A stretch of 64,000 bases of DNA. Source: a plasmid. A model generated the notes under the pieces. The model was not told the DNA's origin and did no database searches. It worked only from the letters and a program-made list of their open reading frames with translations. The DNA is taken from the sequence record NZ_CP092111.1; one strand, written 5' to 3'. Shown here in pieces: positions 25,561-64,000 of this stretch (position 1 is the stretch's first letter; every line of letters starts with the position of its first letter). The translations under genes and the position numbers were made by a program.

Positions 25561-25580
25561 AGAAGAAAAGGTGATTTGAG

Positions 25581-26483: not shown

Positions 26484-26493
26484 GGAGGTCTCA

Positions 26494-26718: not shown

Positions 26719-26724
26719 AGTAAT

Positions 26725-27909: not shown

Positions 27910-27941
27910 AAGAAAATCTTAATATATTAGGAGGAATTTAT

Positions 27942-28235: not shown

Positions 28236-28255
28236 TGTGGGAGGTGTCTATCACC

Positions 28256-28702
28256 ATGATAAGAGGAAGATGTACCACAGCTGTGTTCAAAATTCCAAAT
28301 GTGATTCGTGGGCTAGCAGGATCGAGTGACGGAGGGATATCTCTTCCGTTCTCTGCCACGACTACGCAGGCAATTTTAGCGTTTGTCTTTCTATTAATGG
28401 GTATTCCAGCGTATTTAATTTCTAATTGGCTTTTTCCGTTTGTTCCAGCGATTGCCCGTTTCTTGATATTAATTATTATTGTCCCACTTGCATTAGGCTA
28501 TAAATTGGGAATGCAACAGAGGGAAAGCATGAGCATGATTCGTTACTGGATCATCAAATGGAAAACCAAATATGAGCCTAATGAAATGATAAGATTTGAA
28601 GAGGTTGAACAAGATAAAGAAATTCGATTCGAACAAAAAATCAGAATGAAGCGACATTTCAAATATCCGAAAGAGGTGAAAAATATTGAAATACGAGAGT
28701 GA
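28256..28702 (+). CDS. small T4SS membrane protein (ConD-like, ~148 aa)
   Basis: ATG at 28256 after GGGAGGTG. Two or three TM helices. Precedes the VirB4-like gene, as ConD does. Confidence 0.5.
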   Translation: MIRGRCTTAVFKIPNVIRGLAGSSDGGISLPFSATTTQAILAFVFLLMGIPAYLISNWLFPFVPAIARFLILIIIVPLALGYKLGMQQRESMSMIRYWIIKWKTKYEPNEMIRFEEVEQDKEIRFEQKIRMKRHFKYPKEVKNIEIRE

Positions 28703-31232: not shown

Positions 31233-31273
31233 AGGGGAGAATATCTCTCCCTCTATTAGAAAGGAGATACAAC

Positions 31274-31804
31274 ATGAAAAGGATTATTACTTCTGTAATG
31301 TTGCTAGGGGTTCTTCTATTGTCTGGATGCGGAAAAGAAAAATGTGAAGATACAGAATCGTGTAAAAGGGCTTTAGAATACGTCACATATGATAATCAAA
31401 ATGCTTATGACAAGATGTATTCAATGGAGATAGGGGGCAACGGTGGTAAAACATCAAGTAGCTTAGAGGACGCAAAGAGTAAGCTCCCAGATGACTATGA
31501 AAACGTGAAAGAAAAATCTGTTGAAAAGTATGCTGCTATCGAATATGAAATTAAGCCAGGCAGTGAATATATTTATAAGTTTGTGTTTTTTGATTTGAGA
31601 AGCAATGAAAAAAAAGTTACTTCTGTGAAGATGGAAAAAGTTAAGAATCAATATTTAGCAAAACAAATTTTTGGATCTATAAAAGCTGGCAGTATAGAAA
31701 AAGAGAATGAAGAGCTAATCACTCCTAAATATTATTTCTCCGACAGTTTGACTGAGAAGGAGAAAGACGAATTAAAACCGACACCTGTCAAAAAAGATGA
31801 ATAA
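31274..31804 (+). CDS. lipoprotein (176 aa)
   Basis: Signal peptide with lipobox LLSGC. Confidence 0.55.
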   Translation: MKRIITSVMLLGVLLLSGCGKEKCEDTESCKRALEYVTYDNQNAYDKMYSMEIGGNGGKTSSSLEDAKSKLPDDYENVKEKSVEKYAAIEYEIKPGSEYIYKFVFFDLRSNEKKVTSVKMEKVKNQYLAKQIFGSIKAGSIEKENEELITPKYYFSDSLTEKEKDELKPTPVKKDE

Positions 31805-31818
31805 GGGAGAAGGTATAA

Positions 31819-34065
31819 ATGAGAAAAAAGAGGCGGCTTCTTATCCGCTGCGGTTTATTAATGTTCTGTATACTGATGCTTATTCCTTGTTCTGCTGCAT
31901 CAGCTAAACCTAATGTTATGGATGATTTATCACCAGAATCGGACTTGCCAGATACTTCTGCGCCGGTAGTTAAATATAATGAGTATCCGATCGAAAATTA
32001 TGATTTAGATATCTATGCTGAGGATGAGGATGAGGATGAGGGAGGAATTTTAGATGCTATTAAGTCATTAAACCCCTTTAATATCAAGGATGAAGTAATA
32101 GAGAGTATTCTGGCGTTTCAACAAACCATTCTTTCGGGTCTTTGGTATGGATATACTGTAGTCGTGAACTCAGGATTATATTTTATAGAGCAAGCTTTTA
32201 CTTTTGATCTGATAGGTTCTATGATTGGCTACATCGCTGACCTTATTGCAGAGATTGGCGGTCCATATGGGATTGGCCAATTTATGGGTTTTATGCTCAT
32301 TTTGACTTCAGCTTGGCTAGTGTATACAACTGCAAAAAAACAATTTAGACATGCTATTGGTGGACTTCTAATTGCTGCGCTATTATCAGGTTTTTTCACC
32401 TTGTATGTTCAGAATAGTGAATCAGTTCTTGGTTTTATGAATGACAAACGATTGGCAGTATCAAACGCTGTTTTAAGTTCTTCAACATACTCATTAGATA
32501 GTCAGGATTCTGATGGGCAAGTTAAAGGCAAAGATACACCAAGATACACAGACGCTGCGTCATCGCGTTATGGTTTGTCAAGAATTCGAAACTTACTGCA
32601 TGATTTGCTGATTGTTAAGCCTTATATGTTAATGGAATTTGGATCAACTAATTTAGCAGTTGTTGGGGGAGCAAAAAGTAAAAATGACTTTACACAGAAG
32701 GATATAGATGCTGGTAAAGAAAAGTTGCGAACGCTTTTAAAAGCTAAACCAGGAAGTGACGAACGGAAGAAATTTATTAAAGAAAATTTGGATGAAACTA
32801 TGTTTTCAGCTGAGTATACCAATCAAAGAACTGTATTATCATTCCTCATTTGGGTTCCGGCCGTATTAATTTTGGCTTTTGCTGGGCTAGTGTCTTTTCT
32901 AGTTCAAATATACAGTGCTGGTTTCTTAATACAAGCTTCAATAGGTGTTTTCATTATAATGGCTGCGATTATGCCTACTTTTCGATCGTTTGCAAGTCAA
33001 TGGGCGCTTAAATTGTTAAATTTTCTTGCGATGTCAGTAGCATTTACTTTTTCACTCATATTGATGTTCAGCCTTGTAAATATAGTTTATAAAGTAGCAG
33101 AGGATAAAAACTGGAATTACTTATCTATCGTTACAGGAGTGGCCATAGTTGTTATTACAATGATTGTACTTTCATCTAAACTTTGGGGATATCAAATTGT
33201 TAAACAAAACTTAGAAAAAGCACGAGAATTTACGCAAAAGATGGTCCAAAATTCAAAAGAACAACAAATGGCAAAAGATCGTATTCAAGAAGCTGGTGGT
33301 GGGAGTGGATGGTATTCCCCTGGAAGAACTGCATCATCAGGAAGTCCGAATAGACTTCAAAAAAACATTAACAGGTTGAATAAATCAGATAAAGCCCCAA
33401 TAAAAGGTTCTGAGGATACAGGTAACAATATAGCTGCTGCTGATCTAAACAAGAAAGCTGATAATAAAGCAGCAGATAAACTTTTGAAAAATGTTAATAG
33501 TAAGAAAAACAAAAAAGATAATCGTATTAAGAAACAACCAGGTCATAAGGATTTGGAACAACTGTCAGCAGGAAAACTGTCTAATGATCAGAATGGTAAT
33601 GGCCAAAACGGAGATGAAAAACAGTCTGGCAACAAGAATCAGCATTTAATCAATCATATGCAGAAAAAACAGGCTGATGGAGAACGAATCAAGCAGCAGC
33701 CAGGACAGAAGGAGAATGAAAATGTTGCTGTGCAAAAGAGACCCCAAGGAGAAGAAGCTTTACAAAGAATACGCAGGCAAGAAGCACAAGAAAAACGGAG
33801 AATCCATAAACAGCCGCAAACTCCTGAAAACTTAAAACCAGAAAATGAACGTGGGCAAACAGGAGAATATCAAACCGTAGCTCGTGAGAAAGCTAAAATG
33901 AAAGCGATGGAGCAAAGAACGCGCGAAAACAATTCTGCTGATAATATTGTTCAGCTGCCTAGAAGAGATGAAACAGCCGCTTCTAGTGAAACTAATCAAC
34001 AAAATTCTCATTCAAGAGAGTTGGACCAAATGAGAAAAAGGATGAATGAAAATAAAGGAGAGTGA
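31819..34065 (+). CDS. T4SS polytopic channel protein (VirB6/ConG-like) with long low-complexity K/Q/N-rich C-terminal tail
   Basis: Signal/TM, at least 6 TM helices in the middle, and a disordered C-terminus of ~250 aa. Position matches ConG in ICEBs1-type operons. Confidence 0.6.
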   Translation: MRKKRRLLIRCGLLMFCILMLIPCSAASAKPNVMDDLSPESDLPDTSAPVVKYNEYPIENYDLDIYAEDEDEDEGGILDAIKSLNPFNIKDEVIESILAFQQTILSGLWYGYTVVVNSGLYFIEQAFTFDLIGSMIGYIADLIAEIGGPYGIGQFMGFMLILTSAWLVYTTAKKQFRHAIGGLLIAALLSGFFTLYVQNSESVLGFMNDKRLAVSNAVLSSSTYSLDSQDSDGQVKGKDTPRYTDAASSRYGLSRIRNLLHDLLIVKPYMLMEFGSTNLAVVGGAKSKNDFTQKDIDAGKEKLRTLLKAKPGSDERKKFIKENLDETMFSAEYTNQRTVLSFLIWVPAVLILAFAGLVSFLVQIYSAGFLIQASIGVFIIMAAIMPTFRSFASQWALKLLNFLAMSVAFTFSLILMFSLVNIVYKVAEDKNWNYLSIVTGVAIVVITMIVLSSKLWGYQIVKQNLEKAREFTQKMVQNSKEQQMAKDRIQEAGGGSGWYSPGRTASSGSPNRLQKNINRLNKSDKAPIKGSEDTGNNIAAADLNKKADNKAADKLLKNVNSKKNKKDNRIKKQPGHKDLEQLSAGKLSNDQNGNGQNGDEKQSGNKNQHLINHMQKKQADGERIKQQPGQKENENVAVQKRPQGEEALQRIRRQEAQEKRRIHKQPQTPENLKPENERGQTGEYQTVAREKAKMKAMEQRTRENNSADNIVQLPRRDETAASSETNQQNSHSRELDQMRKRMNENKGE

Positions 34066-34070
34066 GGCGG

Positions 34071-34670
34071 GTGAGTGTTCGTCATAAAAAGTTGGTTACT
34101 CTTGCTGTCGGTGTCGCTCTGTTTTTAGTATCTGGACTGGCTATTTTCTTTAGCTCAAATGAATCTGTGTCCAAAGATGATGGCGCATCAGCCAAGCAGA
34201 ATAACATTAATAAGCCCGCTGAAGATGATTTATCCTCAGAAGGAGCTATGAGTCTTGAAGAGGATAAATCATCCTTAGATCAAGCTGAAAGACTTTCTGA
34301 AGAGGAAAAAAAAGAAACGAAAAAAACAGCTGAAGAATTTGTGAAACGGTATGCTGCTTTTAATGCTGAAAATCCTATTGATAACATAGAAAATGCAAAA
34401 GATTATATGACCGAAGAGCTTTATAATGCTTTGAAAAAACATCCAACTAGAGGGACGTTGACCCATTATAAAGTTAAACCCGAAAAAATATATATTACTG
34501 ACGTTTCTAATGATAATAAAGATCTTGTCCGATGGAACGTAGTTATGCAAGGGAAGGTTTTTGATAAAGAGGGTAAATCAAAGTCAGAAGAAGATTGGTA
34601 CCTTGTTACAATAAAGGATGTTTCAGGAGAAAAAAAGGTGAGTGATGTTAGTGTCAACCTTCCAAGTTAA
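34071..34670 (+). CDS. membrane-anchored acidic protein (~199 aa)
   Basis: N-terminal TM helix ([20 protein letters not shown]), then E/K-rich region. GTG start after AAAGGAG. Confidence 0.45.
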
Positions 34671-35790
34671 GGCTCTAAACACTCTATATAATTATAAAAA
34701 AAAGAAAATCAAGATCTACATTGGTTTAGGGATCAGCGCAGCTATATTAGTAATTTCGGGAATTGTTATGGCGGTCATTTTGGTAATGGGTGCTTTTGGA
34801 GTTTTAACAAATCAAAAAGAATTAGTTCCCACCAGTGATTATTCTGATATCAATATATCAGAAATTGGTGAGAATCAAATACCAGCAGAATATATCCCAC
34901 TATATAAAAAGGCAGCTGAAAAATATAAGTTACCTTGGACATTACTTGCTTCTATCCATAGAATTGAAACAAGATTTTCATCAATTAAAAAGATGGAATC
35001 AAATGTGGGGGCTCAAGGCCCTGCTCAGTTTATGCCATGTACTTGGGTGGGATGGGGACATCCTTCTTGTAGTGGACTTGGGAAAGGTAATATTCCAAAA
35101 AGTCAAATGTCTGATTTGAAAACGATTAAAAAATATGGCGGTTATGGAGTCGATGCTAATGGTGATGGCAAGGCTGATATATGGGACTTAGAAGATTCTA
35201 TTTATTCCGCGGCAAACTATCTTGCTGCTAGTGGGGCAGCAAAGGGTGACTTTCAAAAAGCCATTTTTGCTTACAATAACGCTGACTGGTATGTCCAAGA
35301 AGTAATTCAATATATGGATTTGTATGGATCAGGGAAAGCTGAAGAAGTTAATTTTGGCAATATGAATCCTGGAAAAGATAAAGGTCCTGAAGCAGCTGAA
35401 AAGGCCATTAAAGCAGGATTAGAGCTTGTTGGGAAAAGCCCTTACAATTGGGGGGGAGGAAGAAATCAATTTGATATCAACAGAAGGTCGTTTGATTGTT
35501 CTTCTTTTGTCCATTGGATGTATGCTCAAGGCGGCGTAAATCTTGGTGACGTTTCATCAGTTGTTACTGATTCACTTGTGAAATTCGGGAAAAAAGTTGA
35601 CGCTAAAGACATGAAACGCGGTGATCTTGTCTTTTTTGATACTTATAAGACTAATGGCCACGTGGGTATTTACTTGGGGGATGGGAAGTTTTTAAATGAT
35701 AATAGTTCACATGGTGTCCAGGTAGATAAGATGAACAATACCTATTGGCGTGCTCATTTTAGTGGTGTTGTACGGCGTGTGGTGAACTAG
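34642..35790 (+). CDS. bifunctional cell-wall hydrolase CwlT-like (lytic transglycosylase/muramidase + NlpC/P60 endopeptidase), VirB1 analogue
   Basis: N-terminal TM helix. SLT-like domain [14 protein letters not shown]-terminal NlpC/P60 domain with [11 protein letters not shown] (Cys) ... GHVGIYLG (His). Confidence 0.75.
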
Positions 35791-35802
35791 GAAGGAGAAG
35801 GT

Positions 35803-36300
35803 GTGAATATTAAGTTATTTTTAAATGATGTGAAAACTCTATCTAAAGATTTTTTAAATAAGCATTGGATCACGATACTAGCAGTAGTAACCTTGATCTT
35901 TTCGTGCTACATGTATCTCTATACCTTCAGTGCAATGTTACTGCCTTTTATGTTTGTGCCAATGTGGTATATTTCTGCAATTGCATTTAGTAATCATAAA
36001 ATGCATAAATCAATTAATGGGTTATTTCGAAAGGATAAAACGAAAAAATTCACTATTTTAAGAGTTTATACTAACGATCACAATTTTGTTGAACGAATGA
36101 CAGATGCCGATTATTTAGCAACGCAATCTATAGATTCCGAAAAAGGTATGGTGAATATATCAAAAGATATTCCATCTCAGATACCATATTATGTTGATGA
36201 AGAATTTCGTTATTGCTACCATATATTGATTGATGATAATAATAATATGTACATTGCAGGACAATATGAAAACCAAGAAGTTGATCAAATTGACGACTAA
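35803..36300 (+). CDS. T4SS-associated membrane protein (165 aa)
   Basis: Two TM helices. Follows the cwlT-like gene, as yddI does in ICEBs1. Confidence 0.45.
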   Translation: MNIKLFLNDVKTLSKDFLNKHWITILAVVTLIFSCYMYLYTFSAMLLPFMFVPMWYISAIAFSNHKMHKSINGLFRKDKTKKFTILRVYTNDHNFVERMTDADYLATQSIDSEKGMVNISKDIPSQIPYYVDEEFRYCYHILIDDNNNMYIAGQYENQEVDQIDD

Positions 36301-36469: not shown

Positions 36470-37200
36470 AGACAGAGCCGGCTGAAAGGAACCGGCTCTT
36501 TTTTGCAGCCAGAGAGACAACGGGCCGCCCTGGCAGCTGAAGGAGATCCGCGGCCGTCGGTTCCGATGCAGCGCCGGCTTTTTTTTGTGTCCTGGCCAAG
36601 CCGGGCCGCCCTGATAGCTGAAGGAGATCCGTGGCCGTCGGTTCCGTGCGGTTCCAGAAGGAGAGCATCTGAAGGAGAAAACGCCCCGCGTTTACGGGGC
36701 GATTGGGAAAGCACCGGCAGCGCCGCGCCATGAAATCTCTGCGTCTCATCGAAGCTGCGGGGCAGCCGGATTCCGGAGCCGATCAGGCGCCGGCTTTTTT
36801 TGTGTCCTGGCCAAGCCGGGCCGCTCTGGTAGCTGAAGGAGATCCGCGGCCGTCGGTTCCGTGCGGTTCCAGAAGGAGAGCATCTGAAGGAGAAAACGCC
36901 CCGCGTTTACGGGGCGATTGGGAAAGCACCGGCAGCGCGCCGCGTCGTGAAATCTCCGCGTCTCATCGAAGCTGCGGGGCAGCCGGATTCCGGAGCCGAC
37001 CAGGCGCCGGCTTTTTTTGTGTCCTGGCCAAGCCGGGCCGCCCTGGCTGCTGAAGGAGCTCCGCTCAGACCTTGCAGCTGCATCAGCACATGACGAGTTG
37101 CTTAGAGCGAAGAGAGAAAGAGCGCGCCGCGCTTACCATGGTGCTTAGGAGCCGCTGTAGCTGCAGGTGATCCAGAGCCGATAGAAAGGAACCGGCTCTT
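36470..37200. repeat. GC-rich composite hairpin repeat locus (A-type), ~3 units
   Basis: Units beginning GAAAACGCCCCGCGTTTACGGGGCGATTGGGAAAGCACCGGCAGCG at ~36680 and ~36895. Confidence 0.8.
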
Positions 37201-46129: not shown

Positions 46130-47800
46130 CGGCGTCAGCTAGCAATCTGAAGGCGAAAAACGCTTCGCGTTTACGGAGCGATCGGGAGAGTGCTGGATGC
46201 GCCTCTCCTATAAAATCTCCGCGACTCATCACAAGTTCGGGAGCAACCGGATTCCGGAGCCGGCCAGGCGCCGGCTTTTTTGTGGCCAGGTCAGGCAACG
46301 GATCGCCCTGGCTGTTGAAGGAGATACGCGGCCGCCGGTCCCGATATGGCGCCTGCAGGAGAGCATAGAAGGCGAAAACGCTTCGCGTTTACGGGGCGAT
46401 CTGGTCTGCATGGGCAGCACCGCGCCATGAAATCTCTGTGTCACATCGAAGCTGCGGGGCAGCCGGATTCCGGAGCCGATCAGGCGCCGGCTTTTTTTGT
46501 GTCCTGGCCAGACGGGCCGCCCTGGTAGCTGAAGGAGCTCCGCGGCCGTCGGTTCCGATGCGGCGCCAGCAGGAGAGCGTCTGAAGGTGAAAACACACCG
46601 CGTTTACGGGGCGATCTGGTCTGCACCGGCAGCGCCGCGTCGTGAAATCTCCGCGGCTCATCGAAGCTGCGGAGGAAACCGGATTCCGGAGCCGGCCAGG
46701 TGCCGGCTTTTTTTGTGTCCAGAGCAGGAAACGGGCCGCCCTGGTAGCTGAAGGAGCTCCGCGGCCGTCGGTTCCGATGCGGCGCCAGCAGGAGAGCGTC
46801 TGAAGGTGAAAACACACCGCGTTTACGGGGCGATCTGGTCTGCACCGGCAGCGCCGCGTCGTGAAATCTCCGCGGCTCATCGAAGCTGCGGAGGAAACCG
46901 GATTCCGGAGCCGGCCAGGTGCCGGCTTTTTTTGTGTCCAGAGCAGGAAACGGGCCGCCCTGGCTGCTGAAGGAGATCCGCGGCCGTCGGTCCCGATATG
47001 GCGCCAGCAGGAGAGCATAGAAGGCGAAAACGCCCCGCGTTTACGAAGCGATCGGGAGTATACCGGCAGCGCCGCATCGTGAAATCTCCGCGGCTCATCG
47101 AAGCTGCGGGCAACCGAATTTGGGAACCGGCCAGGCGCAGGCTTTTTTGTGGCCAGGTCAGGCAACGGATCGCCCTGGCTGCTGAAGGAGATCCGCGGCC
47201 GCCGGTCCCGATATGGCGCCAGCAGGAGAGCATCTGAAGGCGAAAACGCCCCGCGTTTACGGGGCGATCGGGAGAGCATCTGCAGCGCGCCGCGCCATGA
47301 AATCTCTGCGGCTCATCGAAGCTGCGGGGGCTGCCAGATTCCGGAGCCGACCAGGCGCCGGCTTTTTGTGTTCTGGCCAGGACGGAACGCCCTGGCTGCA
47401 GCTGAAGGATATCCGCATCCGACGGCCCTAATACGGCGCCAGCAGGAGAGCGTCTGAAGGCAAAACGCCCCGCGTTTACGGGGCGATCGGGAGAGCATCT
47501 GCAGCGCGCCGCGCCATGAAATCTCTGCGGCTCATCGAAGCTGCGGGGGCTGCCAGATTCCGGAGCCGACCAGGCGCTGGTTTTTTGTGTCCAGGGCAAG
47601 CTACGGGACGCCCTGGTTGCAGCTGAAGGATATCCGCATCCGACGGCCCTAATACGGCGCCAGCAGGAGAGCGTTGAAGGCAAAACGCCCCGCGTTTACG
47701 GGGCGATCAGGGATGCACCGGCAGCGCCGCCTCATGAAATCTCTGCGGCTCATCGAAGCTGCGGGGCATCCGGATTCCGGAACCGGCCGGTCGCCTGCAA
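46130..47800. repeat. GC-rich composite hairpin repeat locus (A-type), ~7.5 tandem units of ~218 bp; largest array
   Basis: GAAAACGC(C/T)(C/T)CGCGTTTACGG unit starts at ~46155, 46375, 46590, 46810, 47030, 47243, 47463, 47688. Each unit carries three hairpins, including the terminator-like AGCCGGC-CAGGC-GCCGGCT+T6. Confidence 0.85.
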
Positions 47801-53104: not shown

Positions 53105-53500
53105 TCTGGCGAGAAGCAGTTTTTTCACTGTTTCCAGCTTTTATGACCAGTGGCCAGGTAATGGGTGTCTTGGCAAAGAACCTGTGACCGTCGGCTCCGA
53201 TGCGGCGCCGGCAGGAAGATCATCAGCGCAGAAGGCGGAAACGCCCTGTGTCTACGGAGCGATCAGGAATGCGTCGGCTACGCCTCTTCCATGAATTCTC
53301 CCCGGACTATCGCAGACTGCGGGTAGCAGGATTCCGGAACCGGCTAAGTGCCGGTTTTTTTGTGGCCAGGGCAGGCAACGGGCCGCCCTGGCTGCAGCCA
53401 AAGGAATTGTGCGGCCATTAGCCCCGATAGGGAGCCGATATGAGAGTGTCCATGCTGAGGCGAAAAAGCTCTGAGTTTAGGGAGCCAATCAGGAGTGCAC
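53105..53500. repeat. GC-rich composite hairpin repeat locus (degenerate A-type), ~1.5 units
   Basis: Contains GGCGGAAACGCCCTGTGTCTACGGAGCGATCAGG...CCGGAACCGGCTAAGTGCCGGTTTTTTTGTGGCCAGGGCAGGCAACGGGCCGCCCTGGC. Confidence 0.7.
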
Positions 53501-53994: not shown

Positions 53995-55245
53995 TCTTGC
54001 CGTTGGTCCTGATATGGTGCCAGCAGGAAGAACTTCTGCACAGAAAGCCAAAACACCCCCGCGTTTACGGGGGGTGATCATGAGTGAACTGGCTGTGGCT
54101 TCATCGCAGGCTGCTGAAGGAGCTCCGCGGCCGTTGGCCCTGATATAGCGTCGACAGGAGAGCGTCTGAAGCACAAAACGCCCCGCGTTTACGGAGCGAT
54201 CGGGAGAGCACCGGCAGCGCCTCCGCCGTGAAATCTCCGCGGCTCATCGAAACTGCGAGGCAGCAGGATTCCGGAACCGGCCGGGTGCCGGCTTTTTGTG
54301 TCCAGGGCAGGTAACGGGGCGCCCTGGCTGCTGAAGGAGCTCCGCGGCCGTCGGTTCCGATGCGGCGCCGGCAGGAGAACGTCTGAAGGAGAAAATGCTC
54401 CGCGTTTACGCAGCGATCAGGGCTGCACCGGCAGCGCCGCGTCGTGAAATTTCCGCGCTCATCGAAGTTTCGGGGCAGCAGGATTCCGGCCGGCTAGGTG
54501 CCGGCTTTTTGTGTCCAGGCAGGCAACGGGGCGCCCTGGCTGCTGAAGGAGCTCCGCGGCCGTCGGTTCCGATGCGGCGCCGGCAGGAGAACGTCTGAAG
54601 GAGAAAATGCTCCGCGTTTACGCAGCGATCAGGGCTGCACCGGCAGCGCCTCCGCCGTGAAATCTCCGCGGCTCATCGAAACTGCGAGGCAGCAGGATTC
54701 CGGAACCGGCCGGGTGCCGGCTTTTTGTGTCCAGGGCAGGTAACGGGGCGCCCTGGCTGCTGAAGGAGCTCCGCGGCCGTCGGTTCCGATGCGGCGCCGG
54801 TAGGAGAACGTCTGAAGGAGAAAATGCTCCGCGTTTACGCAGCGATCAGGGCTGCACCGGCAGCGCCGCGTCGTGAAATTTCCGCGCTCATCGAAGTTTC
54901 GGGGAAACAGGCTTCCGGAACCGGCCAGGTGCCGGCTTTTTGTGTCCAGGCAGGCAACGGGGCGCCCTGGCTGCTGCGGCCGTCGGCCCGTCAGGAGAGT
55001 GTCTGATGTCAAAACGCCCCGCGTTTACGGAGCGATCGGGAGAGCACCGGCAGCGCCTCCGCCGTGAAATCTCCGCGGCTCATCGAAGTTTCGGGGAAAC
55101 AGGCTTCCGGAACCGGCCAGGTGCCGGCTTTTTTGTGTCCTGGTCAGGCAACGGGCCGCCCAGGCTGCAGCTGAAGGAGCTCCGCGGCCGATCGCCTCGA
55201 TACAATGCCGACAGTACTCCGGAGCCGGTGGTCGGTTAATTTTCA
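53995..55245. repeat. GC-rich composite hairpin repeat locus (A-type), ~6 units
   Basis: Unit starts at ~54056, 54180, 54398, 54618, 54820, 55018. Immediately upstream of rap. Confidence 0.85.
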
Positions 55246-55387
55246 TTGAGAGCCACTTAAATATTTCTTTGATATTTGAATCTTGAGAAAATACCCAAAA
55301 AGGGGAATATTCTATTGATTTTTTAAACCCATTAAATAGAAATATGATAAAATATTAGGGGGTATCATATAAGGGAGGGAAAACGAT

Positions 55388-56539
55388 TTGGTGAGTAAAA
55401 CGCTGGCATCTTCAGAGGTGGGACACCTTATAAATCAATGGTATGGTTATATTCGTTCTTTTAGTATTCCAGATTCAGAGTATTTAAAGAAAGAAATTGA
55501 GAATAAACTTGATCAAATGGAAGAAGACCAAGATCTGCTTTTGTACTATTCACTTATGGAGTTTCGACATCGCTTAATGTTGGAATCCCTTGAACCATTA
55601 GAAAAATTAAGAATTGATCAGCAGCCGAACCTTTCAGATTTATTATCAGAAATTGAGAATAATCAGTCTCGTATCAAAGGAATGCTGGACTACTATTTTA
55701 ATTTCTTTAAAGGACAATTTGAATTTTCTAGGAAGAATTATATTCAAGCGATACAATATTATAAACGAGCAGAATTGAAGCTAGATCTAATTCCTGAAGA
55801 AGAGAAAATTGAAAAAGCAGAATTTCATTATAAAGTGGCAGCTGCTTATTATAGAATCAAGCAGAATATGTTTTCGCTACATCATGCAGAGATCGCTTTA
55901 AATATGTTCGAAGCCAATAAACTCTATAGTACAAGTACCATAAGTTGTGAAATGATGTTAGGCGCAAATAAGCTTGATCTTCTTCGATTTGATGAAGCAG
56001 AGGCCCATTATACAAATGCCATGAAGTTTGCTGAATTGACAAAGGATAATTATTCAAGAGGATTGGCTTGTCATAATATTGGGTTAAGCTATGCGCTTCA
56101 AAACAAAAGTGACTTAGCTGAAGAATATTTCCGAAAAGTCCTTGAAATACCAGAATATTATGAAACTGAACGTGGGTTAAGGACTGATTTTGAATTGACT
56201 TTTGTCTTGTATAAGAATGGTAAAATAGAAGAGGCACAAAAGCTTTTAGTAAAGGGCATCAAGAAAGCTGAAAAAGAAGGTGAAGCAGAGTATTTGGCGA
56301 AATTTAATATTGTCCATGCTCTTTACGGTGGCTTAGAGGCACAAAAGCGTGACGATCTTATTCAGAGAGCATTCAAATATCTTGAAGAAAAGCAGCTATG
56401 GACAGATATTGAAGAATTGAGCCAAGATATCGCGGAACATTTTCGCATAATCAAGGATTATGCGAATACTGTATTATATCTGGATAAGGTGATCTACGCG
56501 AAGAACAAAATTCTCAGCGTATCGGAGGAATTAATGTGA
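55388..56539 (+). CDS. rap: Rap-family TPR response-regulator aspartate phosphatase/quorum receptor
   Basis: 383 aa, TPR-rich, with typical Rap architecture. The downstream overlapping phr (ATGTGA overlap) confirms the module. Confidence 0.85.
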   Translation: MVSKTLASSEVGHLINQWYGYIRSFSIPDSEYLKKEIENKLDQMEEDQDLLLYYSLMEFRHRLMLESLEPLEKLRIDQQPNLSDLLSEIENNQSRIKGMLDYYFNFFKGQFEFSRKNYIQAIQYYKRAELKLDLIPEEEKIEKAEFHYKVAAAYYRIKQNMFSLHHAEIALNMFEANKLYSTSTISCEMMLGANKLDLLRFDEAEAHYTNAMKFAELTKDNYSRGLACHNIGLSYALQNKSDLAEEYFRKVLEIPEYYETERGLRTDFELTFVLYKNGKIEEAQKLLVKGIKKAEKEGEAEYLAKFNIVHALYGGLEAQKRDDLIQRAFKYLEEKQLWTDIEELSQDIAEHFRIIKDYANTVLYLDKVIYAKNKILSVSEELM

Positions 56540-56718
56540 AGAAAATAGTGGCTGTCGCAGTTCTCATCTCAATTATGGCTTTATTTTTCTCTGTATTTCA
56601 TAATAAGCATGATGAGAAACGGTTGGCTGGCAGGGCCGAATATGCAATACAGGGAACACATTATACGGCTTTAGCCGATGGACAGTTTGAAACCCAAGGT
56701 AGAGCTGAATTTGCATGA
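56536..56718 (+). CDS. phr: Phr signalling-peptide precursor
   Basis: 60 aa, N-terminal signal peptide (VAVAVLISIMALFFSVF). Start overlaps the rap stop. Confidence 0.75.
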   Translation: MKKIVAVAVLISIMALFFSVFHNKHDEKRLAGRAEYAIQGTHYTALADGQFETQGRAEFA

Positions 56719-56826
56719 TCCTTTCCCTCCGACGAATGTTCGGAGGGTTTTACGTATGACAAATTTTATATTTATCATCAAAAAATGATTCTAACGCAAA
56801 AACAAATTCAAAGGGAGAATGCCTGT

Positions 56827-57760
56827 ATGAATTTTAGAAGAGGCGTCTTTATCATTGTATCGACTATCGTATTAATGTCAGGGATCGGTCTAACTGCATC
56901 GGCCGTTTCATTAGATGGATCATATCAAGTTTCGTCTGATCGTAATCAAACCTAAGAAGGATCCTGCTCTCCAGGGAAGAGATGAATATCATACAACGCA
57001 ACCAGATATAAATTTGGTTAAAGATAGTGACAAAATCAAGCCTAGTAAGAGTGGAACCCCTGGATCGCCAGCTTATTATGAAAAAGGTGAAGCGAAGACT
57101 GGTTTTATTCAATATGAATTATCGGCTTCAGAATACAAAGAGTTTAAAAATGAAAAGACAAAACTAGTGATTTCCCCTCCTTCAAAAGATTCTATGTTCC
57201 GCGAGCATATCGGTGAAAAGCAAACCAGGGATCTCCCGCTGTCTGGAAATTCTTTAGAAATACAAAAGAGCGATAAAAAATTTTATGAGGATCAGATTAT
57301 TCGCAAAGGTATTGCCGAAAAAACCATGATAGAACTCAAAGACGGTTTGGCTGACAAGAAAAGTGAAAATAAAGTTGAATTGACACTGGAAGGCTTTCAA
57401 TTTACTAAGTTAGCTCCTTCAGTTAGTTTCAAAAAATCTTTTACTGGTTTTGGGAATGAGGATATTGTTGCAGCTACCTTTAAGTTACATATAAAAAACA
57501 ATCAAGGTGACACCCTGCCATTAGGACAGTTCAGCTCTTTTTTAGACACTGACAAGCGACATTATTTAAATCAAGGATCATTAGAGTATGATTCAGGAGA
57601 CCTCCGGCCAGGACAGTCAGGCACAAAATATTTAGTGTTCTTGATGAAAAAGTCAGAACTTAACGAAAACCCAAAATTCAAATTGCGCATTAGACATATT
57701 GAAGGAAATAGTGGTGACGCGTTAAATGATCGAGAGGTTGACTTTAATCTGGTTCGTTAA
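56827..57760 (+). pseudogene. Secreted protein gene (DUF4352-like Ig-fold type) apparently split by a frameshift
   Basis: A signal-peptide ORF (MNFRRGVFIIVSTIVLMSGIGLTASAVS...) in frame 1 stops at 56955. The mature-domain ORF (56915-57760) continues in another frame. Confidence 0.4.
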
Positions 57761-58013
57761 TCGAAACTGAAGAGCTCTCTATTAACTACAAAATCATGAT
57801 TGTTCTCATTAGACAAACATGATAAAGTAGAAAAGTAGAAAAGTAGAGAAATTTAAAAGTTGTTGTTTCTAAGGGATCAACTGATCCTTTAAGGAGGTGA
57901 TTAAATCGATTCTGAAATACGGACAACTTAATACTTCGGTTTCTTTTATTGATACGAGTTAGAATTTTCCCTCTTTTCAAAAACCACTTATCTTAAAAAG
58001 AGGAGAAATGTAT

Positions 58014-59930
58014 ATGTCAATAAAGAAACTATCGGTGCTGTTTAGTATTTTTTTGATTGCTTTGAGCTCGATCTTCTCGTTTGCAGGGAACAAAGCTTTT
58101 GCAGATTCATTTGCGGGAGACCCTAATACTAAAGTTACTGGATGGGCGTTTGATGAGAGTATCGGCGGATACCTGCCTACCGAGCAAATCAAGTCAGTAA
58201 GTGATCCGACCAGATTTGCCTATTGCCTGGAGCCTGGAAAACACTCTCCTGACCATGTAGATATGCCATCTGCAGGACAAATGAATGACAAGGTATATCG
58301 GGTTCTGTCATATGGATATCCAAACGCTACAGCGAGCGAATTAGGAGTTAGTAGCAATGCCAAGGCTCATTATGCCACGCAAATTGCAATTTGGCTTACA
58401 ATCGGTGAGGTGAAAGCTTCCAATCTTACCTACAGTGACAATAGCATCGAAAAGGCGGTTCAGCACCTTTTAAATAAAGCTGCAAGCGAAAAAGATACAC
58501 AGAATGTCAGTGTTACAGTAACTCCGGACAATGCGAAAGCATCTGTGAAAGGAGACTATCTCGTAACTGAGCCGTATACAGTAAAAAGCTCTGCAACAGG
58601 TACATACACTGTTTCTTTGTCTGGTGCTCCAAAGAATGCAGTTGTAACAGATGTAAATGGGAAAGTAAAATCAACATTTTCAGCAAACGAGCAGTTTAAA
58701 ATCCAGTTGCCAAAAAATACTCCGACAGACAAAGTCAAAGTTACTGTTAATACTGAAATGAACAAGCTTGTATCAATGCAATACAATTCAGATGGGACCT
58801 ATCAAAACATTGTGTCTTTAAAAGAGGTTAAAAAGAATGTTGAGGTCGGTGTCTCTGCTTCATGGGAAACAACTGGTGCCCTTCAAATATTAAAAGTGAC
58901 AGAGGACAATGCACCGTTAACGGGAGTTATCTTTGACATTTTTGATCAAAGTGGTGAGAAAGTAACTTCAGTTCAAACAGATAAAAACGGTAAAGCTACT
59001 GCTTCCAAATTGCCGATTGGTAAATATACAGCGGTGGAAACGAAAACTGCTGAGGGTTTCATTTTAGATCAAGAGCCCAAAACAGTTACCGTAAATGCAG
59101 ATGAAACAACTACACTTTCCATCATAAACAAAAAAATTCGTGGAAATGTTGAATTGAAAAAAATTGATACTGATAGCAAGAATTCATTAGAAGGTGCTGT
59201 TTTCGAGCTCTTCAATAATAAAGGAAAAGCAATTGGCCAATACACAACTGATAAAGAAGGAAAAATCCTGATTAAGAATTTAGAATATGGATCATATTCA
59301 TTTGTTGAAAAGAGCGCACCTAATGGCTATGTTTTAAACACTGAGCCAATTAATTTTGAAGTCAAAGAAAATAAAAAAACTGTGCAAATTCAAGCAGATA
59401 ACAAAATGATTACCGGCTCGCTAGAAATTACGAAAACCGATGTGGCAGACGGTAATACTCGCTTAAAAGGTGCAGAATTTACTATCTTTAATGAAAATGG
59501 TGAAGAGGTTGCCAAGGGGAAAACAGATAAAGATGGTATAGCTCGTTTTGATAATTTACCATTTGGCCAATACACTTATAAAGAGACATTTGCGCCAAAA
59601 GGATATTTAATCAATGAGGAAACATTTTCTTTTGAGATCAAAGAAAATGGCCAAATCATTAAACACATGGTGGCTGATAAGAAAAAAGCTGTTGCCGCAG
59701 CTCCAGTTTTCGAAAAAGCTTCACCTGTCGTGAAAACAGAAAAAGTGCAAACTGTTATTAAACCGGTTCAGAATACTGTCAAAGAAGAACAGCCGGTTAA
59801 AGAAAACACATTGCCGAACACTGGAAATCCTAATCAGTACCGAGCTGTAATGATTGGCCTTTTCTTAATCATTATCGGTGCCGCATGGTATTTGTTAAAG
59901 CGTAAAAAGACACAATCTGATAGTGAGTAA
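58014..59930 (+). CDS. LPXTG-anchored surface adhesin with N-terminal thioester domain (TED) and tandem CnaB/SpaA-type domains
   Basis: Signal peptide. TED Cys motif AYCLEP and Gln motif TQIAIW. Three or four Ig-like CnaB repeats (e.g. GAEFTIFNENGEEVAKGKTDKDGIARFDNLPFGQYTYKETFAPKGY). C-terminal LPNTG + TM + KRKK. Confidence 0.75.
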   Translation: MSIKKLSVLFSIFLIALSSIFSFAGNKAFADSFAGDPNTKVTGWAFDESIGGYLPTEQIKSVSDPTRFAYCLEPGKHSPDHVDMPSAGQMNDKVYRVLSYGYPNATASELGVSSNAKAHYATQIAIWLTIGEVKASNLTYSDNSIEKAVQHLLNKAASEKDTQNVSVTVTPDNAKASVKGDYLVTEPYTVKSSATGTYTVSLSGAPKNAVVTDVNGKVKSTFSANEQFKIQLPKNTPTDKVKVTVNTEMNKLVSMQYNSDGTYQNIVSLKEVKKNVEVGVSASWETTGALQILKVTEDNAPLTGVIFDIFDQSGEKVTSVQTDKNGKATASKLPIGKYTAVETKTAEGFILDQEPKTVTVNADETTTLSIINKKIRGNVELKKIDTDSKNSLEGAVFELFNNKGKAIGQYTTDKEGKILIKNLEYGSYSFVEKSAPNGYVLNTEPINFEVKENKKTVQIQADNKMITGSLEITKTDVADGNTRLKGAEFTIFNENGEEVAKGKTDKDGIARFDNLPFGQYTYKETFAPKGYLINEETFSFEIKENGQIIKHMVADKKKAVAAAPVFEKASPVVKTEKVQTVIKPVQNTVKEEQPVKENTLPNTGNPNQYRAVMIGLFLIIIGAAWYLLKRKKTQSDSE

Positions 59931-59988
59931 GATGACATAGAGAGACAGCTGTTTGCTGTCTCTTTCTTATACGGAGGTTTTTTAAGAC

Positions 59989-60585
59989 ATGAAGTCTAAA
60001 CTTTTTCCTGTTTTTTTGTTAATTGTTGGACTGTTGGTAGCTTGGTTTGGGGGCGGAAAAGACATAATATCGAGCAAGCAGAAAACAAACACATCTCTTG
60101 CTGAAGCGAAAGAAATCATAAAAGAAAGCAAGACAGAGAAAGCTTCTGAAAACAATAAGCAAGAAGGAAAAAACGAATCATTCCAAGTGAAAAATGGTGA
60201 AACGGTTGGGATTCTCTCTATTCCCAAAATTGATGCTGAACTACCGATTGTGGAAGGTACTGCAGCAGAAGACCTGAGTAAAGGCGTTGGTCATTATAAA
60301 GGCAGCAGCTATCCGAATGAGAATGGGCAAATTGTTCTTTCGGGCCATCGGGATACAGTTTTTCGGCGCACTGGTGAGCTAAAGCATGGCGATACTCTTA
60401 AACTAAGTTTGTCTTACGGAGAATTTGAATATAAGATTACAGATACTAAAATTGTTGATGAGAATGACACTTCTGTTATTACTCTGCAGCATAAAGAAGA
60501 AGAATTGATACTGACGACATGTTATCCATTTTCATACATAGGAGACGCACCAGAGCGTTATATCATATATGCTGCTCCTATTTAA
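59989..60585 (+). CDS. sortase (dedicated to the adjacent LPNTG adhesin)
   Basis: N-terminal TM. His in LSGHRD. Active-site TLxTC as LILTTCYPF. Conserved Arg near the C-terminus. Confidence 0.75.
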   Translation: MKSKLFPVFLLIVGLLVAWFGGGKDIISSKQKTNTSLAEAKEIIKESKTEKASENNKQEGKNESFQVKNGETVGILSIPKIDAELPIVEGTAAEDLSKGVGHYKGSSYPNENGQIVLSGHRDTVFRRTGELKHGDTLKLSLSYGEFEYKITDTKIVDENDTSVITLQHKEEELILTTCYPFSYIGDAPERYIIYAAPI

Positions 60586-60684
60586 TTAGGCGCTTATGAA
60601 ATGTTTATTTGTATTGACAGACAGGTAGTGGAAAGATAAGATTTACACAATGATAAGTCAATTTCCACAAGGAAGGTAAGTTTT

Positions 60685-60846
60685 ATGTCTGCAAATAATG
60701 AAGTGACTGCAAAGATTTCGAAAAAAACGGACGATATGCTGGATGAGTTAAAATTGGAATCGAAAAAAAATGGTGAAAAAAAATACAAAAAAGAACTTAT
60801 GGAGACTGCAGTTACTGAATATTACAATAAAATTTTTAAAAAATAG
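60685..60846 (+). CDS. hypothetical small charged protein (53 aa)
   Basis: ATG at 60685 after AAGGAAGG. Not in the supplied ORF track (<60 aa). Confidence 0.3.
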   Translation: MSANNEVTAKISKKTDDMLDELKLESKKNGEKKYKKELMETAVTEYYNKIFKK

Positions 60847-60879
60847 ATACTGTATTAAAAGGAAGCTGTCACCAAGATA

Positions 60880-61620
60880 GCTTCTTTTTTTACCTTTAGT
60901 AGCCAGGACGGTCCATTGCCTGCCCTGGACAAAAAAAGCCGGTGCTGGTCGGCTCCGGAATCCTGGTGCCCCGCAGCTTCGATGAGCCGCAGAGACTTCA
61001 TGGCGCGGCGCTGCCGGTGCGGCCCTGATCGGCCCCGTAAACGCGGGGCGTTTTCTCCTTCAGATGCTCTCCTGCTGGCGCCGGATCGGGGCCGACGGCC
61101 GCGGAGCTCCTTCAGCAGCCAGGGTGTCCCGTTGCCTGCCCTGGACACAAAAAAGCCGGCGCCTGGCTGGTTCCGGAATCTGGTGCCCCGCAGCTTCGAT
61201 GAGCCGCAGAGACTTCATGGCGCGGCGCTGCCGGTGCGGCCCTGATCGGCCCCGTAAACGCGGGGCGTTTTCTCCTTCAGATGCTCTCCTGCTGGCGCCG
61301 GATCGGGGCCGACGGCCGCGGAGCTCCTTCAGCGGTAAAGGGCGTCCCGTTGCCGGCCACAAAAAAGCCGGCGCCCGGCCGGTTCCGGAATCCGGTTGCC
61401 CGCAGCTTCGATGAGCCGCAGAGACTTCATGGCGCGGCGCTGCCCGTGTGGCCCTGATCGCCCCGTAAACGCGGGGCGTTTTCTCCTTCAGATGTTGCCC
61501 TGCCGACGCCGATCGGACCGACGGCCGCGGATCTCCTTCAGCAGCCAGGGTGTCCCGTTGCCTGCCCTGGACACAAAAAAGCCGGCGCCTGGCCTGATCT
61601 GGAGTCTTGCTGCTCCTGCC
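60880..61620. repeat. GC-rich composite hairpin repeat locus (A-type, inverted orientation), ~3 units; abuts truncated rap
   Basis: Reverse-orientation units: ...CGGCCCCGTAAACGCGGGGCGTTTTCTCCTTCAGATGCTCTCC.... Confidence 0.8.
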
Positions 61621-61953: not shown

Positions 61954-62376
61954 ATGTTCATCGAAGCTTCAAATTGCTTTAAACAAGCGATAAGGATTCC
62001 AGAGCACTTAGCATCTTATGTTGGTACACGCTCCACTTATATGTTGAGTAAAGTTCTATTTCAACTGGGAGCTTATGAAGCCGCCCAATCATGGTATGAA
62101 AAAGCTCTGAAAAGAGCCACGGATGAAGGAGAACAGGAGTATCTGGCGAAATTAAAACTTGTATACTCTTTGTATGCGGAGCAAAATGACCAAGAAGTGA
62201 GAAAAAATCTTCATGTCCTTGATGATATGAAACTTTGGACAGAAACAGCCGATCTTTCACTCGAAATTGCTGAATACTATAAGAGTAAGGCTGATCTTGA
62301 AAAAGCCGCGTATTACTTTGAACACGGTCATTTTGCCAAGGACAAAATCATTAAAATATCGGAGGCGTTATTATGA
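61954..62376 (+). pseudogene. rap: Truncated rap (C-terminal ~140 aa only)
   Basis: Aligns to the C-terminal third of the 55388-56539 Rap (EGEQEYLAKLKLVYSLYA... vs EGEAEYLAKFNIVHALYG...). The N-terminal ~240 codons are missing and GC-rich repeats lie immediately upstream. Confidence 0.65.
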
Positions 62377-62501
62377 AGAAAAAAACACTTCTGCTCACTC
62401 TGCTAACTGTGTCAGCTTTGTTGCTGGTCTCTCCTACCTTTGCGAACGATACAACCCTTTCAAGTAAACCCATTCAAATTGCAGAAAAAGCAGTATTTAT
62501 T
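62373..62501 (+). CDS. phr: Phr-like secreted peptide precursor (42 aa)
   Basis: MKKKTLLLTLLTVSALLLVSPTFANDTTLSSKPIQIAEKAVFI: signal peptide plus short pro-region, overlapping the stop of the truncated rap. Confidence 0.5.
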
Positions 62502-62519
62502 TGAGGTCTGACATTCAAC

Positions 62520-63480
62520 AAAAAAGGCGGACTCTTGAAAAAAGAGCCTGTCTTTTTTGTTTTTTCCTCGCTTCTACGCTTCAGCAAACAATCGTGAATG
62601 CCTGGCATTTTCGTTCCGATCGGCCGGACCGCCCCCCGAACCTGCAAAATGCAGGTTCGTATCTGCAATGCGCTCGCCTTTCGGCTGGAGCCGTTTTCTC
62701 TCATCTTCAGCTGTACGCTTCCGCAGGTGGACTGTGAACGCCTGGCGGTTTCTCATCAATCGCCAGGGGGGCTGCCAAGGTATTCCTGAGTTGACACCCA
62801 CCGCAACCTACGACACATGGCCATGAAAAAAACGGACGTCTTCCCGCTGATCTGTGAAAAAATAGGATTGAACACTGACCGTTTAATTTTTGAAACGGTC
62901 GGAATGCTTTCGAAAGGATGGCACTTGGTCACGAAGAAGTGTTCTGGTATCCGAATGCCACCGGCTCCAGTTTATCTTCAGCTACCAACTTCTGCAGGCG
63001 GGCCGTGATCGCCCATGTTTTACTTATCGATCACCGGGGACGCCGGTGGATTTCCTGAATTGATACCGTGTGGGGCGTTCCTGACCATGAAAAAGCCGGT
63101 TGCTCTCCGATCGGCCAAATCGGGTTGCTGAGACGCGATCCCCGAATCTGCAAAATGAAGGTTCGTAACTGCAATGCGCCCGCTTTTCGGTCGTTTCCGG
63201 ATTCTGTTCATCTCCAGCTGTCGGCAGCCGCAGCCTACGACACATGGCCATGAAAAAAACGGACGCCTTTCCGATGATCTGGACTGAAAAAATAGAATTG
63301 AACACTGACCGTTTAATTTTTGAAACGGTCGGAATGCTTTCACAGGAGGGCTGCTATCGGATGTTCTACAGCTGTTGTCAGGCTGGCGCTTGGTCACGAA
63401 AAAGTGTTTTGGGCTCCGAATGCTACCAGATCCAGCCTATCTTCAGCTGCCGCGTCTCCACAGACGGTCACAAAGTGAAT
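62520..63480. repeat. Second repeat family: two tandem ~460-bp units with several hairpins
   Basis: Unit 1 ~62560-63010, unit 2 ~63060-63480. Shared blocks: CTGCAAAATGCAGGTTCGTA(T/A)CTGCAATGCGC, ACGACACATGGCCATGAAAAAAACGGACG, GAACACTGACCGTTTAATTTTTGAAACGGTCGGAATGCTTTC. Confidence 0.75.
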
Positions 63481-63481
63481 T

Positions 63482-64000
63482 TTATGCCTCTACACATAAT
63501 GATTTTGCGGTTTGAACGAGGCTGCTTATACCCCTGCTGTCCATTAGACGAAAAGGTTTTTCGTACTTCTTAGCAAATTCTTTGGCTTTTTCAGCTGTGG
63601 GATGATTAATATTTAACTTCATCGTAATTAACATATCACAGCCTTTTATCATGCTTTCAAGCCGTTTCGTATCTTCATTTCCGTAAGCATGGATAAGCTC
63701 TCCTCCAATACTTACTATCGCTTTTTCAAATTCTGCTGTTCTTCCCTCTCCACCTAATAATAAGACCTTTTTACCTTTCAATTCATTTGTTTCCTTGGTA
63801 TCCGATTTAGGATTTTTGATTTTATAGTTAGAAGAAGGCAAAGGGGGCACGTGAGGCGATCCTTCTGTATTATGCTTCCATATCACTTTGAACACATCTA
63901 TATTGTTACTATAATAAGCAATATCAACAATTGAGCCTACTTCAAGGTCTTCCTTAATGCGCGCCTCGTTGTTGATAAGGAAAGTATGTGGAACATCATT
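63482..64000 (-). CDS. paralog-family protein, C-terminal part (gene continues past the right edge)
   Basis: C-terminal domain KKVLLLGGEGRTAEFEKAIVSIGGELIHAYGNEDTKRLESMIKGCDMLITMKLNINHPTAEKAKEFAKKYEKPF. DNA ~85 % identical to 13255-13770. Confidence 0.6.
   Translation of the reverse strand, partial: NDVPHTFLINNEARIKEDLEVGSIVDIAYYSNNIDVFKVIWKHNTEGSPHVPPLPSSNYKIKNPKSDTKETNELKGKKVLLLGGEGRTAEFEKAIVSIGGELIHAYGNEDTKRLESMIKGCDMLITMKLNINHPTAEKAKEFAKKYEKPFRLMDSRGISSLVQTAKSLCVEA

Follow-up and report, generated by a model that had tools for sequence, protein, structure and literature searches.

What might a conjugative-type plasmid gain from carrying its own thioester adhesin together with its own sortase? 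This question is raised by positions 58014 to 60585 of a 64,000-nucleotide (nt) stretch of the plasmid record NZ_CP092111.1, which is nearly an entire Bacillus velezensis plasmid and which, as the whole stretch that was analyzed, is called the window in the following. The two genes at this position very likely encode, as judged from their sequences, a Sec-exported class II thioester adhesin with a three-domain isopeptide stalk and its own class D sortase for anchoring. By analogy to known systems, it is plausible that the adhesin contributes to the cell-cell contact required for plasmid transfer, albeit with chances that we place at or slightly below even, and for the molecular description and the mating role taken jointly we regard the chances as balanced. 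A publication of 2021 already described thioester adhesins, and with them covalent capture, as taking part in Bacillus conjugation, so that this idea is not new.

The open reading frames (ORFs) are those that the initial annotation had described. The adhesin gene starts with the ATG at 58014, 8 nt downstream of a GAGGAG ribosome-binding site, and this start agrees with the initial annotation and with RefSeq, where the product is found as WP_238810547.1, "SpaA isopeptide-forming pilin-related protein". The sortase is listed there as WP_121984800.1, "class D sortase", and the RefSeq naming of both genes is already correct. The following features were assigned, with the supporting evidence in brackets; structural evidence includes the known Bacillus anthracis protein BaTIE (6FWV) and an AlphaFold2 (AF2) model:

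58014-59930 (+): precursor of a BaTIE-type TIE adhesin, 638 amino acids (aa) (Pfam, 6FWV alignment, AF2/Foldseek)
58014-58103 (+): Sec signal peptide, residues 1-30, predicted cleavage after AFA (read from the sequence; helix 5-26 in the AF2 model)
58104-58868 (+): class II thioester domain (TED), approximately residues 31-285 (Pfam TED, TQXA_dom, 6FWV alignment, Foldseek 6FWV/6FWY)
58224-58226 (+): codon of Cys71 in the motif YCLE, predicted thioester Cys (aligns to BaTIE Cys71)
58377-58394 (+): helper motif TQIAIW, Thr122-Trp127, including Gln123, which is not the bond-forming Gln (PMC6194298)
58803-58805 (+): codon of Gln264 in the motif TYQNIV, predicted thioester Gln (aligns to BaTIE Gln266)
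58869-59141 (+): CnaB/SpaA domain 1, triad Lys294/Glu342/Asn372 (Pfam SpaA; maps to BaTIE K297/E343/N373)
59142-59408 (+): CnaB/SpaA domain 2, triad Lys383/Glu432/Asn463 (Pfam SpaA, alignments)
59409-59684 (+): CnaB/SpaA domain 3, triad Lys474/Glu524/Asp555 (maps to BaTIE K475/E524/N555)
59811-59927 (+): cell-wall sorting signal with LPNTG (59811-59825), hydrophobic helix and KRKK tail (Pfam Gram_pos_anchor)
59989-60585 (+): class D sortase, 198 aa (Pfam, NCBIfam, 2LN7 alignment)

The assignment of the first gene product as a thioester-domain, CnaB-stalked adhesin with an LPXTG-type anchor, which had already been made in the initial annotation, is borne out by sequence families as well as by structure. 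Pfam recognizes the TED (6.7e-16), three SpaA/CnaB stretches (9e-67) and the Gram_pos_anchor (3.7e-4), and in a HMMER comparison with solved structures the protein matches BaTIE 6FWV with an E-value of 5e-135 at about 40% identity. A structure prediction of the TED fold had been suggested as a check, and the AF2 model, which was computed with an alignment of 36 homologues, has a mean pLDDT (predicted local distance difference test) of 83.8, with disorder confined to the signal peptide and to the linker ahead of LPNTG. Foldseek ranks 6FWV first for this model (E 4.5e-62, TM 0.75 on the target), followed by the class II TED of EfmTIE86, 6FWY (TM ~0.8, root-mean-square deviation ~3 Å). As the model matches both 6FWV and 6FWY, it has the class II architecture, i.e. 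a thioester fold with an inserted beta-sandwich.

The closest characterized relative is thus BaTIE (BasC/BA5258), with which the window adhesin shares the Sec signal, the class II TED, the three CnaB domains, the disordered linker and the LPXTG-type signal. All three Lys/Glu/Asn(Asp) isopeptide triads are conserved and correspond in position to the isopeptide bonds of the BaTIE crystal structure (PMC6194298), and the thioester Cys and Gln align as well. The differences concern location and anchoring: BaTIE is a chromosomal protein with the motif LPATG, and the housekeeping class A sortase attaches it to the wall, whereas the window adhesin is encoded on a plasmid, next to a class D sortase of its own, and has an N after its LPNTG. 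Three to four CnaB domains had originally been counted. The lower number is the right one for this protein; four such domains occur in relatives of 710-739 aa and in the majority of B. subtilis-group relatives.

Which residues would form the thioester? The initial annotation had assigned the thioester to the AYCLEP Cys and the TQIAIW Gln, and of this pair the Cys stands, as it is Cys71, while the Gln had to be replaced. In the BaTIE crystal, the thioester connects Cys71 with Gln266, the bond-forming Gln of thioester domains generally sits in a weak ΦQζΦΦ motif near the domain end, and the Gln and Trp of TQxxΦW lie beside the thioester, yet are dispensable for bond formation (PMC6194298). The window adhesin contains the [YFL]CΦζ motif as YCLE and, near the end of the TED, the ΦQζΦΦ motif as YQNIV. 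The BaTIE crystal data together with the 6FWV alignment therefore rule out Gln123 of TQIAIW as thioester partner, and the predicted partner of Cys71 is Gln264. Both residues are invariant in the 36 homologues, as are T, Q and W of TQIAIW, and Cys71 is also invariant in a second homologue alignment; the TQXA_dom family TIGR03934 is recognized with 34.3 bits (cut-off 30.4). In TIEpLS20, the thioester adhesin of the B. subtilis conjugative plasmid pLS20, a YC and a YQ motif align with Cys71 and Gln264, and we take these to be the published Cys68 and Gln256.

The second gene encodes a sortase of class D. The Pfam match (1.8e-31) is accompanied by two NCBIfam class D assignments, NF058671 with 238 bits (cut-off 140) and NF033746 with 200.1 bits (cut-off 165), and the scores for classes C, E and F lie under their NCBIfam cut-offs (class C, 99 bits, cut-off 160). 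Among solved structures, the sortase matches the B. anthracis class D sortase 2LN7 (E 5e-27). The catalytic residues His120 (in SGHRD), Cys178 (in LTTC, codon 60520-60522) and Arg190 (in PERY) are all present, and a hydrophobic stretch at residues 5-20 forms an N-terminal membrane anchor. The B. anthracis enzyme SrtC (2LN7) and B. subtilis YhcS agree with the window sortase in NCBIfam membership and in His/Cys/Arg, and the motif of its presumed substrate begins with LPNT like the LPNTA of B. anthracis, but the window enzyme differs in being plasmid-encoded, paired with one fibrillar adhesin and not known to be linked to sporulation. Also the substrate motif is not identical, as it is LPNTG/LPNTS here versus LPNTA or LPDTS in case of the Bacillus class D sortases.

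The sortase is probably dedicated to the adhesin, as had been proposed. This is supported by the adhesin being the only sorting-signal ORF in the window, by the lack of any terminator-like site found between the two genes, by the distribution of the pair, and by the motif pattern. In the plasmid database PLSDB, a close adhesin (at least 57% identity) occurs in 12 plasmids of the B. subtilis group, and exactly these 12 also have a close sortase (at least 48%); the two genes adjoin in the records that were compared or annotated. LPNT[GS] is kept in sortase-linked and chromosomal B. subtilis-group homologues, with LPNT being invariant in this group, and B. cereus-group homologues without a linked sortase have LPATG or LPTTG. 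For the B. anthracis class D sortase, a preference for LPNTA has been reported (PMC8225981), and the LPNTG/LPNTS of the adhesin homologues fits this preference. The signal of the window adhesin reads LPNTGNP, and the fifth residue of the motif is G or S in homologues, not A; with the NF058670 model of the LPxTATN signal, the adhesin scores 19.6 bits (cut-off 32).

The plasmid itself is, according to its gene content, of the conjugative type, and here the initial annotation proved right, since a full Gram-positive type IV secretion system (T4SS) gene set is present:

22672-36300: transfer set with coupling protein, Replic_Relax relaxase, TcpC-like protein, PrgI-family protein, VirB4, VirB6-like protein and bifunctional cell-wall hydrolase

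The closest relatives of the VirB4-like ATPase (28686-31232) are found on pPMO031_2 (NZ_CP141999.1), a 22-kb rolling-circle-type B. subtilis plasmid with the same T4SS module (VirB4 99.9% identical), then on Priestia megaterium plasmids (~59%) and on Staphylococcus plasmids (~45%), the latter presumably of the pWBG749 type. We had initially suspected that the plasmid belongs to the pLS20 family and that its transfer operon contains a homologue of tiepLS20, but the candidate ORF at 20002-22116 encodes a RepB-type primase, and a tblastn search with TIEpLS20 gave no match in the 64-kb window apart from the adhesin. As in addition the VirB4 kinship points to Priestia and Staphylococcus and the gene layout is another one, membership in the pLS20 family was ruled out.

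From the domain identity, the conserved catalytic and bonding residues, the fold, the sortase pairing and the gene context, all of which were established by computation, we infer bond formation, anchoring, a target and an effect on mating in the following way. The 638-aa precursor would be exported via Sec, its N-terminal class II thioester domain would fold around an internal Cys71-Gln264 thioester, and the three CnaB domains, each with a Lys-Asn/Asp isopeptide bond, would make a rigid stalk. The LPNTG signal, the hydrophobic helix and the KRKK tail would keep the protein at the membrane, where the membrane-anchored class D sortase with its His120/Cys178/Arg190 would cleave after the Thr and join the protein to the peptidoglycan. 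An amine of a target surface could attack the displayed thioester, and the result would be a permanent amide bond. The plasmid would thereby supply an adhesin that is independent of host sortases, that tethers the donor to other cells and that favors transfer in liquid. The module would be an accessory one, with its own transcription unit outside of the T4SS operon and without obvious control by rap-phr.

A role in mating is suggested by the fact that the plasmid, with its full T4SS set, has no other adhesin-like gene, by the joint presence of adhesin and sortase in 12 of 12 B. subtilis-group plasmids, and by precedents from other plasmids. Wall-anchored LPXTG adhesins are common in Gram-positive conjugation systems (PMC12857230). 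The most direct precedent is TIEpLS20, encoded by gene 34 of pLS20, which is likewise a class II thioester adhesin of a Bacillus conjugative plasmid with the aligned Cys/Gln motifs described above, and whose loss lowers mating in liquid about 1000-fold, the C68S mutant being inactive (PMC8092201). TIEpLS20 differs in that it is encoded inside the conjugation operon, has no LPXTG signal and needs neither a plasmid nor a host sortase (PMC8092201), whereas the gene of the window adhesin lies outside the T4SS operon and its product is sortase-dependent by design. PrgB, the aggregation substance of the Enterococcus faecalis plasmid pCF10, is LPXTG-anchored and plasmid-encoded like the window adhesin and promotes mating aggregates in liquid (PMC12857230), but its adhesion is due to an unrelated polymer adhesin domain, with non-covalent binding to lipoteichoic acid and extracellular DNA, and PrgB is encoded inside a pheromone-induced transfer operon and uses the host sortase. 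A plasmid-encoded sortase is known from the Clostridium perfringens plasmid pCW3, whose SrtD belongs to another genus and another conjugation system (Tcp). Plasmids of the pCW3 type also carry a collagen-adhesin gene. SrtD has been reported to be required if this conjugative plasmid is to be transferred efficiently (Revitt-Mills et al. 2021, cited in PMC8225981).

How is the module distributed? It is syntenic in three plasmids, namely the window plasmid, NZ_CP143959.1 and NZ_CP114900.1, which have very different T4SS genes. The adhesins of the window and of NZ_CP143959.1 share 99% identity. In the comparison with NZ_CP114900.1, NucA, JAB, HTH, SprT, MerR, DUF5068, adhesin and sortase are 50-83% identical, whereas primase, ParM, VirB4, TcpC, coupling protein and relaxase reach only 23-40%, and the CwlT-like hydrolase 52%. 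These unequal identities indicate a mosaic, in which one accessory block has been joined to two different transfer/replication modules, and as the module is kept in NZ_CP114900.1 despite the divergent T4SS, it appears to travel as a cassette with conjugative plasmids of whatever T4SS type. A diverged adhesin-sortase pair is found on B. subtilis plasmids of 136-156 kb that likewise seem to be conjugative, and the one that was examined, NZ_CP032858.1, contains FtsK-, DUF87- and T4SS-ATPase-type genes. A scan of species-representative genomes with the single adhesin protein gave no match, and the same scan with an alignment of B. subtilis-group homologues gave two chromosomal loci only.

The module has neighbors that help to define its borders, and these are:

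56725-56747 (+): terminator-like hairpin after phr, 8-pair stem (6 GC) with a T tract behind it, upstream limit of the adhesin unit
56749-56778 (+): promoter-like site TTTACG-18-TATCAT, candidate promoter of the truncated DUF5068-adhesin-sortase unit (consensus match alone)
56915-57760 (+): what is left of a 5'-truncated DUF5068 lipoprotein gene (Pfam DUF5068, weak, 2e-4)
60685-60846 (+): ORF of 53 aa that matches no family, with its own promoter-like site at 60614-60642 (ORF list, site scan)
60857-60889 (+): terminator-like hairpin at the end of the unit, 14-pair stem with a T run behind it (hairpin scan)

In the gap 57761-58007 ahead of the adhesin gene, no promoter-like match of at least 9/12 was detected. 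The 53-aa ORF, which we guess to encode a small DNA-binding protein, directly follows the sortase gene in all three related plasmids and has 67% aa identity in NZ_CP114900.1. Based on these comparisons, the conserved unit consists of DUF5068, adhesin, class D sortase and 53-aa ORF, and it ends at the predicted terminator 60857-60889.

The initial annotation had placed the adhesin directly after a rap-phr quorum module. Physically this is the case, but the hairpin 56725-56747 intervenes, and the adjacency is not conserved in the related plasmids NZ_CP143959.1 and NZ_CP114900.1. At the same position, these plasmids have intact DUF5068 genes (409 and 416 aa), and the homology of the window to them begins only at 56961/56967, inside the DUF5068 gene. 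The rap-phr cassette with its terminator occupies the place of the missing DUF5068 part, with a breakpoint at ~56961, which indicates that the cassette was inserted locally and that the DUF5068 gene was destroyed in the process. NZ_CP143959.1 has bacteriocin genes upstream of the module where the window has rap-phr. A functional coupling of the adhesin module to rap-phr is thus unsupported, given the intervening terminator, the unconserved adjacency and the truncating insertion, and the link is incidental. Just 5' of the DUF5068 remnant and out of frame with it, there is an ORF (56785-56955) that ends in a signal-peptide-like stretch. A second rap-phr pair lies on the other side of the module at 61954-62504, with a truncated rap, of which only the C-terminal 140 aa are left, and an apparently intact phr. 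The identity of this rap is 34% to the complete one at 55388-56539, and 40% to its counterpart at the corresponding site of NZ_CP114900.1, where an intact rap-phr pair is present.

Several points weigh against a role of the adhesin in mating. The module lies more than 20 kb away from the T4SS genes and has terminator-like sites at both ends, and opposite-strand genes as well as repeat arrays with terminator-like hairpins are found in between. The adhesin is therefore not encoded within the transfer operon, although co-regulation may occur in trans. The nearest T4SS relatives, which are pPMO031_2, pBPL056 and one P. megaterium plasmid, contain neither a thioester adhesin nor a sortase. Identity to TIEpLS20 is only 25% and restricted to the thioester domain. 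Chromosomal orthologues with 53-58% identity are found among housekeeping genes in B. swezeyi, Bacillus sp. z60-18 and B. glycinifermentans; those of the first two species mark a conserved chromosomal locus among metabolic genes, and no sortase or transfer genes were found within 10 kb of these two loci. BaTIE also is a chromosomal surface protein (PMC6194298). Finally, the DUF5068 neighbor is truncated, and the adhesin has one CnaB repeat fewer than its relatives.

What alternatives exist for a function in mating? The strongest one, doubtful in our view but to be taken seriously, is that the adhesin is cargo for the niche of the host and of benefit to the host cell, as it would bind to plant or food surfaces, biofilm matrix, animal tissue or another target that is non-bacterial or a matrix, without any role in transfer. 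This would agree with close family members that are chromosomal, stand among housekeeping genes and are unlinked to mobile elements, with the chromosomal location of BaTIE, with the position of the module outside the T4SS operon and its absence from the nearest T4SS relatives, and with the origin of known hosts from fermented soybean foods and similar matrices. However, all plasmid-borne B. subtilis-group copies that were examined reside on plasmids with T4SS-type genes, the module is found in the same place on plasmids whose T4SS genes are unrelated, and pLS20 constitutes a direct functional precedent for mating.

Could the pair instead be expressed late, as envelope proteins of the stationary phase or of sporulation that decorate sporulating cells or forespores but not growing donors? 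The characterized Bacillus class D sortases act in sporulating or late-stationary cells, and their known substrates are BasH and BasI in B. anthracis and YhcR in B. subtilis (PMC8225981). The best structural match of the window sortase is the B. anthracis sporulation sortase 2LN7, and its score lies above the NF058671 cut-off. The substrate, however, is a fibrillar adhesin and thus unlike BasH, BasI and YhcR, a sporulation-type promoter was not identified, though no search was aimed at one, and a late timing would be compatible also with an adhesive or mating role. We therefore consider this explanation improbable. Still less probable is it that the module is a decaying remnant on its way to being lost, from which this plasmid produces no functional adhesin. 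Apart from the DUF5068 gene truncated by the rap-phr insertion, such a decay could be seen in the three CnaB domains in place of the four of relatives, but three domains are the native layout of BaTIE (PMC6194298), adhesin and sortase ORFs are both intact with all bonding and catalytic residues conserved, and the nearly identical adhesin copy of NZ_CP143959.1 adjoins an intact DUF5068 gene. A sortase-assembled pilus, with the thioester protein as tip pilin polymerized by the adjacent sortase, was rejected despite the CnaB/SpaA domains, the "pilin-related" RefSeq name and lower-ranking Foldseek matches to pilins, since the sortase is of class D with a class C score far below the cut-off, no second sorting-signal protein and hence no shaft pilin is encoded in the window, inspection of the adhesin sequence found no YPK pilin motif, and the structural twin BaTIE is monomeric and wall-anchored (PMC6194298).

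Some further features of the plasmid were observed. Positions 55300-60900 of the window are 100% identical to plasmid unnamed1 of Bacillus velezensis SRCM124633 (NZ_CP116015.1, 67,341 bp). At ~53481, the window lacks a 2.7-kb stretch with an ISBsu2 (IS256-like) transposase that is present in NZ_CP116015.1, at ~61872 there is an indel of ~440 bp, and beyond 61872 the identity is 95%. The absent insertion sequence copy, the indel and the lowered identity indicate that the window represents a close variant of the NZ_CP116015.1 plasmid. There are two DUF2325-domain genes, at 13255-14283 (-) and at 63482-64000 (-), the second of which extends past the window end, and further repeated sequences at 62500-63450 result in near-duplicate ORFs (e.g. 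at 62817 and 63244). An Rfam scan of the window gave no match. Tandem arrays with a unit of 217-219 bp and ~65% G+C, in a plasmid of ~38% G+C, are found at six sites and amount to ~4.9 kb in total:

15778-16558 (+): 217-219-bp repeat array
36532-37049 (+): 217-219-bp repeat array
46146-47787 (+): 217-219-bp repeat array
53188-53394 (+): 217-219-bp repeat array
54109-55167 (+): 217-219-bp repeat array
60901-61616 (-): 217-219-bp repeat array

Each unit contains terminator-like hairpins on either strand. The folding of one 217-bp unit was not better than that of shuffled sequence (z = -0.79). The arrays on both sides of the rap-phr/adhesin/sortase block are inverted relative to each other. Within PLSDB, the unit occurs in NZ_CP116015.1 and NZ_CP143959.1 only. 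In work on the pLS20 plasmid family, unexplained long direct repeats have been mentioned for B. velezensis/amyloliquefaciens plasmids (PMC8557374).

What would an adhesin that supports mating mean for these plasmids? A more far-reaching idea, which we put forward tentatively and regard as unlikely rather than likely, is that adhesin, class D sortase, 53-aa ORF and, when intact, DUF5068 form a portable cassette of "covalent mating glue" that moves among Bacillus plasmids with unrelated T4SS. If this is true, the cassette would equip any host, irrespective of which sortases it has, with a thioester adhesin that is anchored in the wall and captures recipient cells, a counterpart to TIEpLS20 that differs from it in depending on a sortase. 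The cassette idea would also account for the occurrence of pPMO031_2, the T4SS twin of the window plasmid that lacks the cassette, in what is apparently the same strain as a 155-kb plasmid that has one. The accession number of pPMO031_2 immediately follows that of this 155-kb plasmid with its adhesin-sortase pair, and the two are probably from one strain.

The compact and self-contained pair of adhesin and sortase is a convenient system for finding out what class II thioester domains bind to on Bacillus cells. If the role in mating is confirmed, nature itself would offer such adhesins for comparison with and without the need of a sortase for their display, and conjugation with covalent capture by thioesters would be known from a second family of Bacillus plasmids that is unrelated to pLS20.

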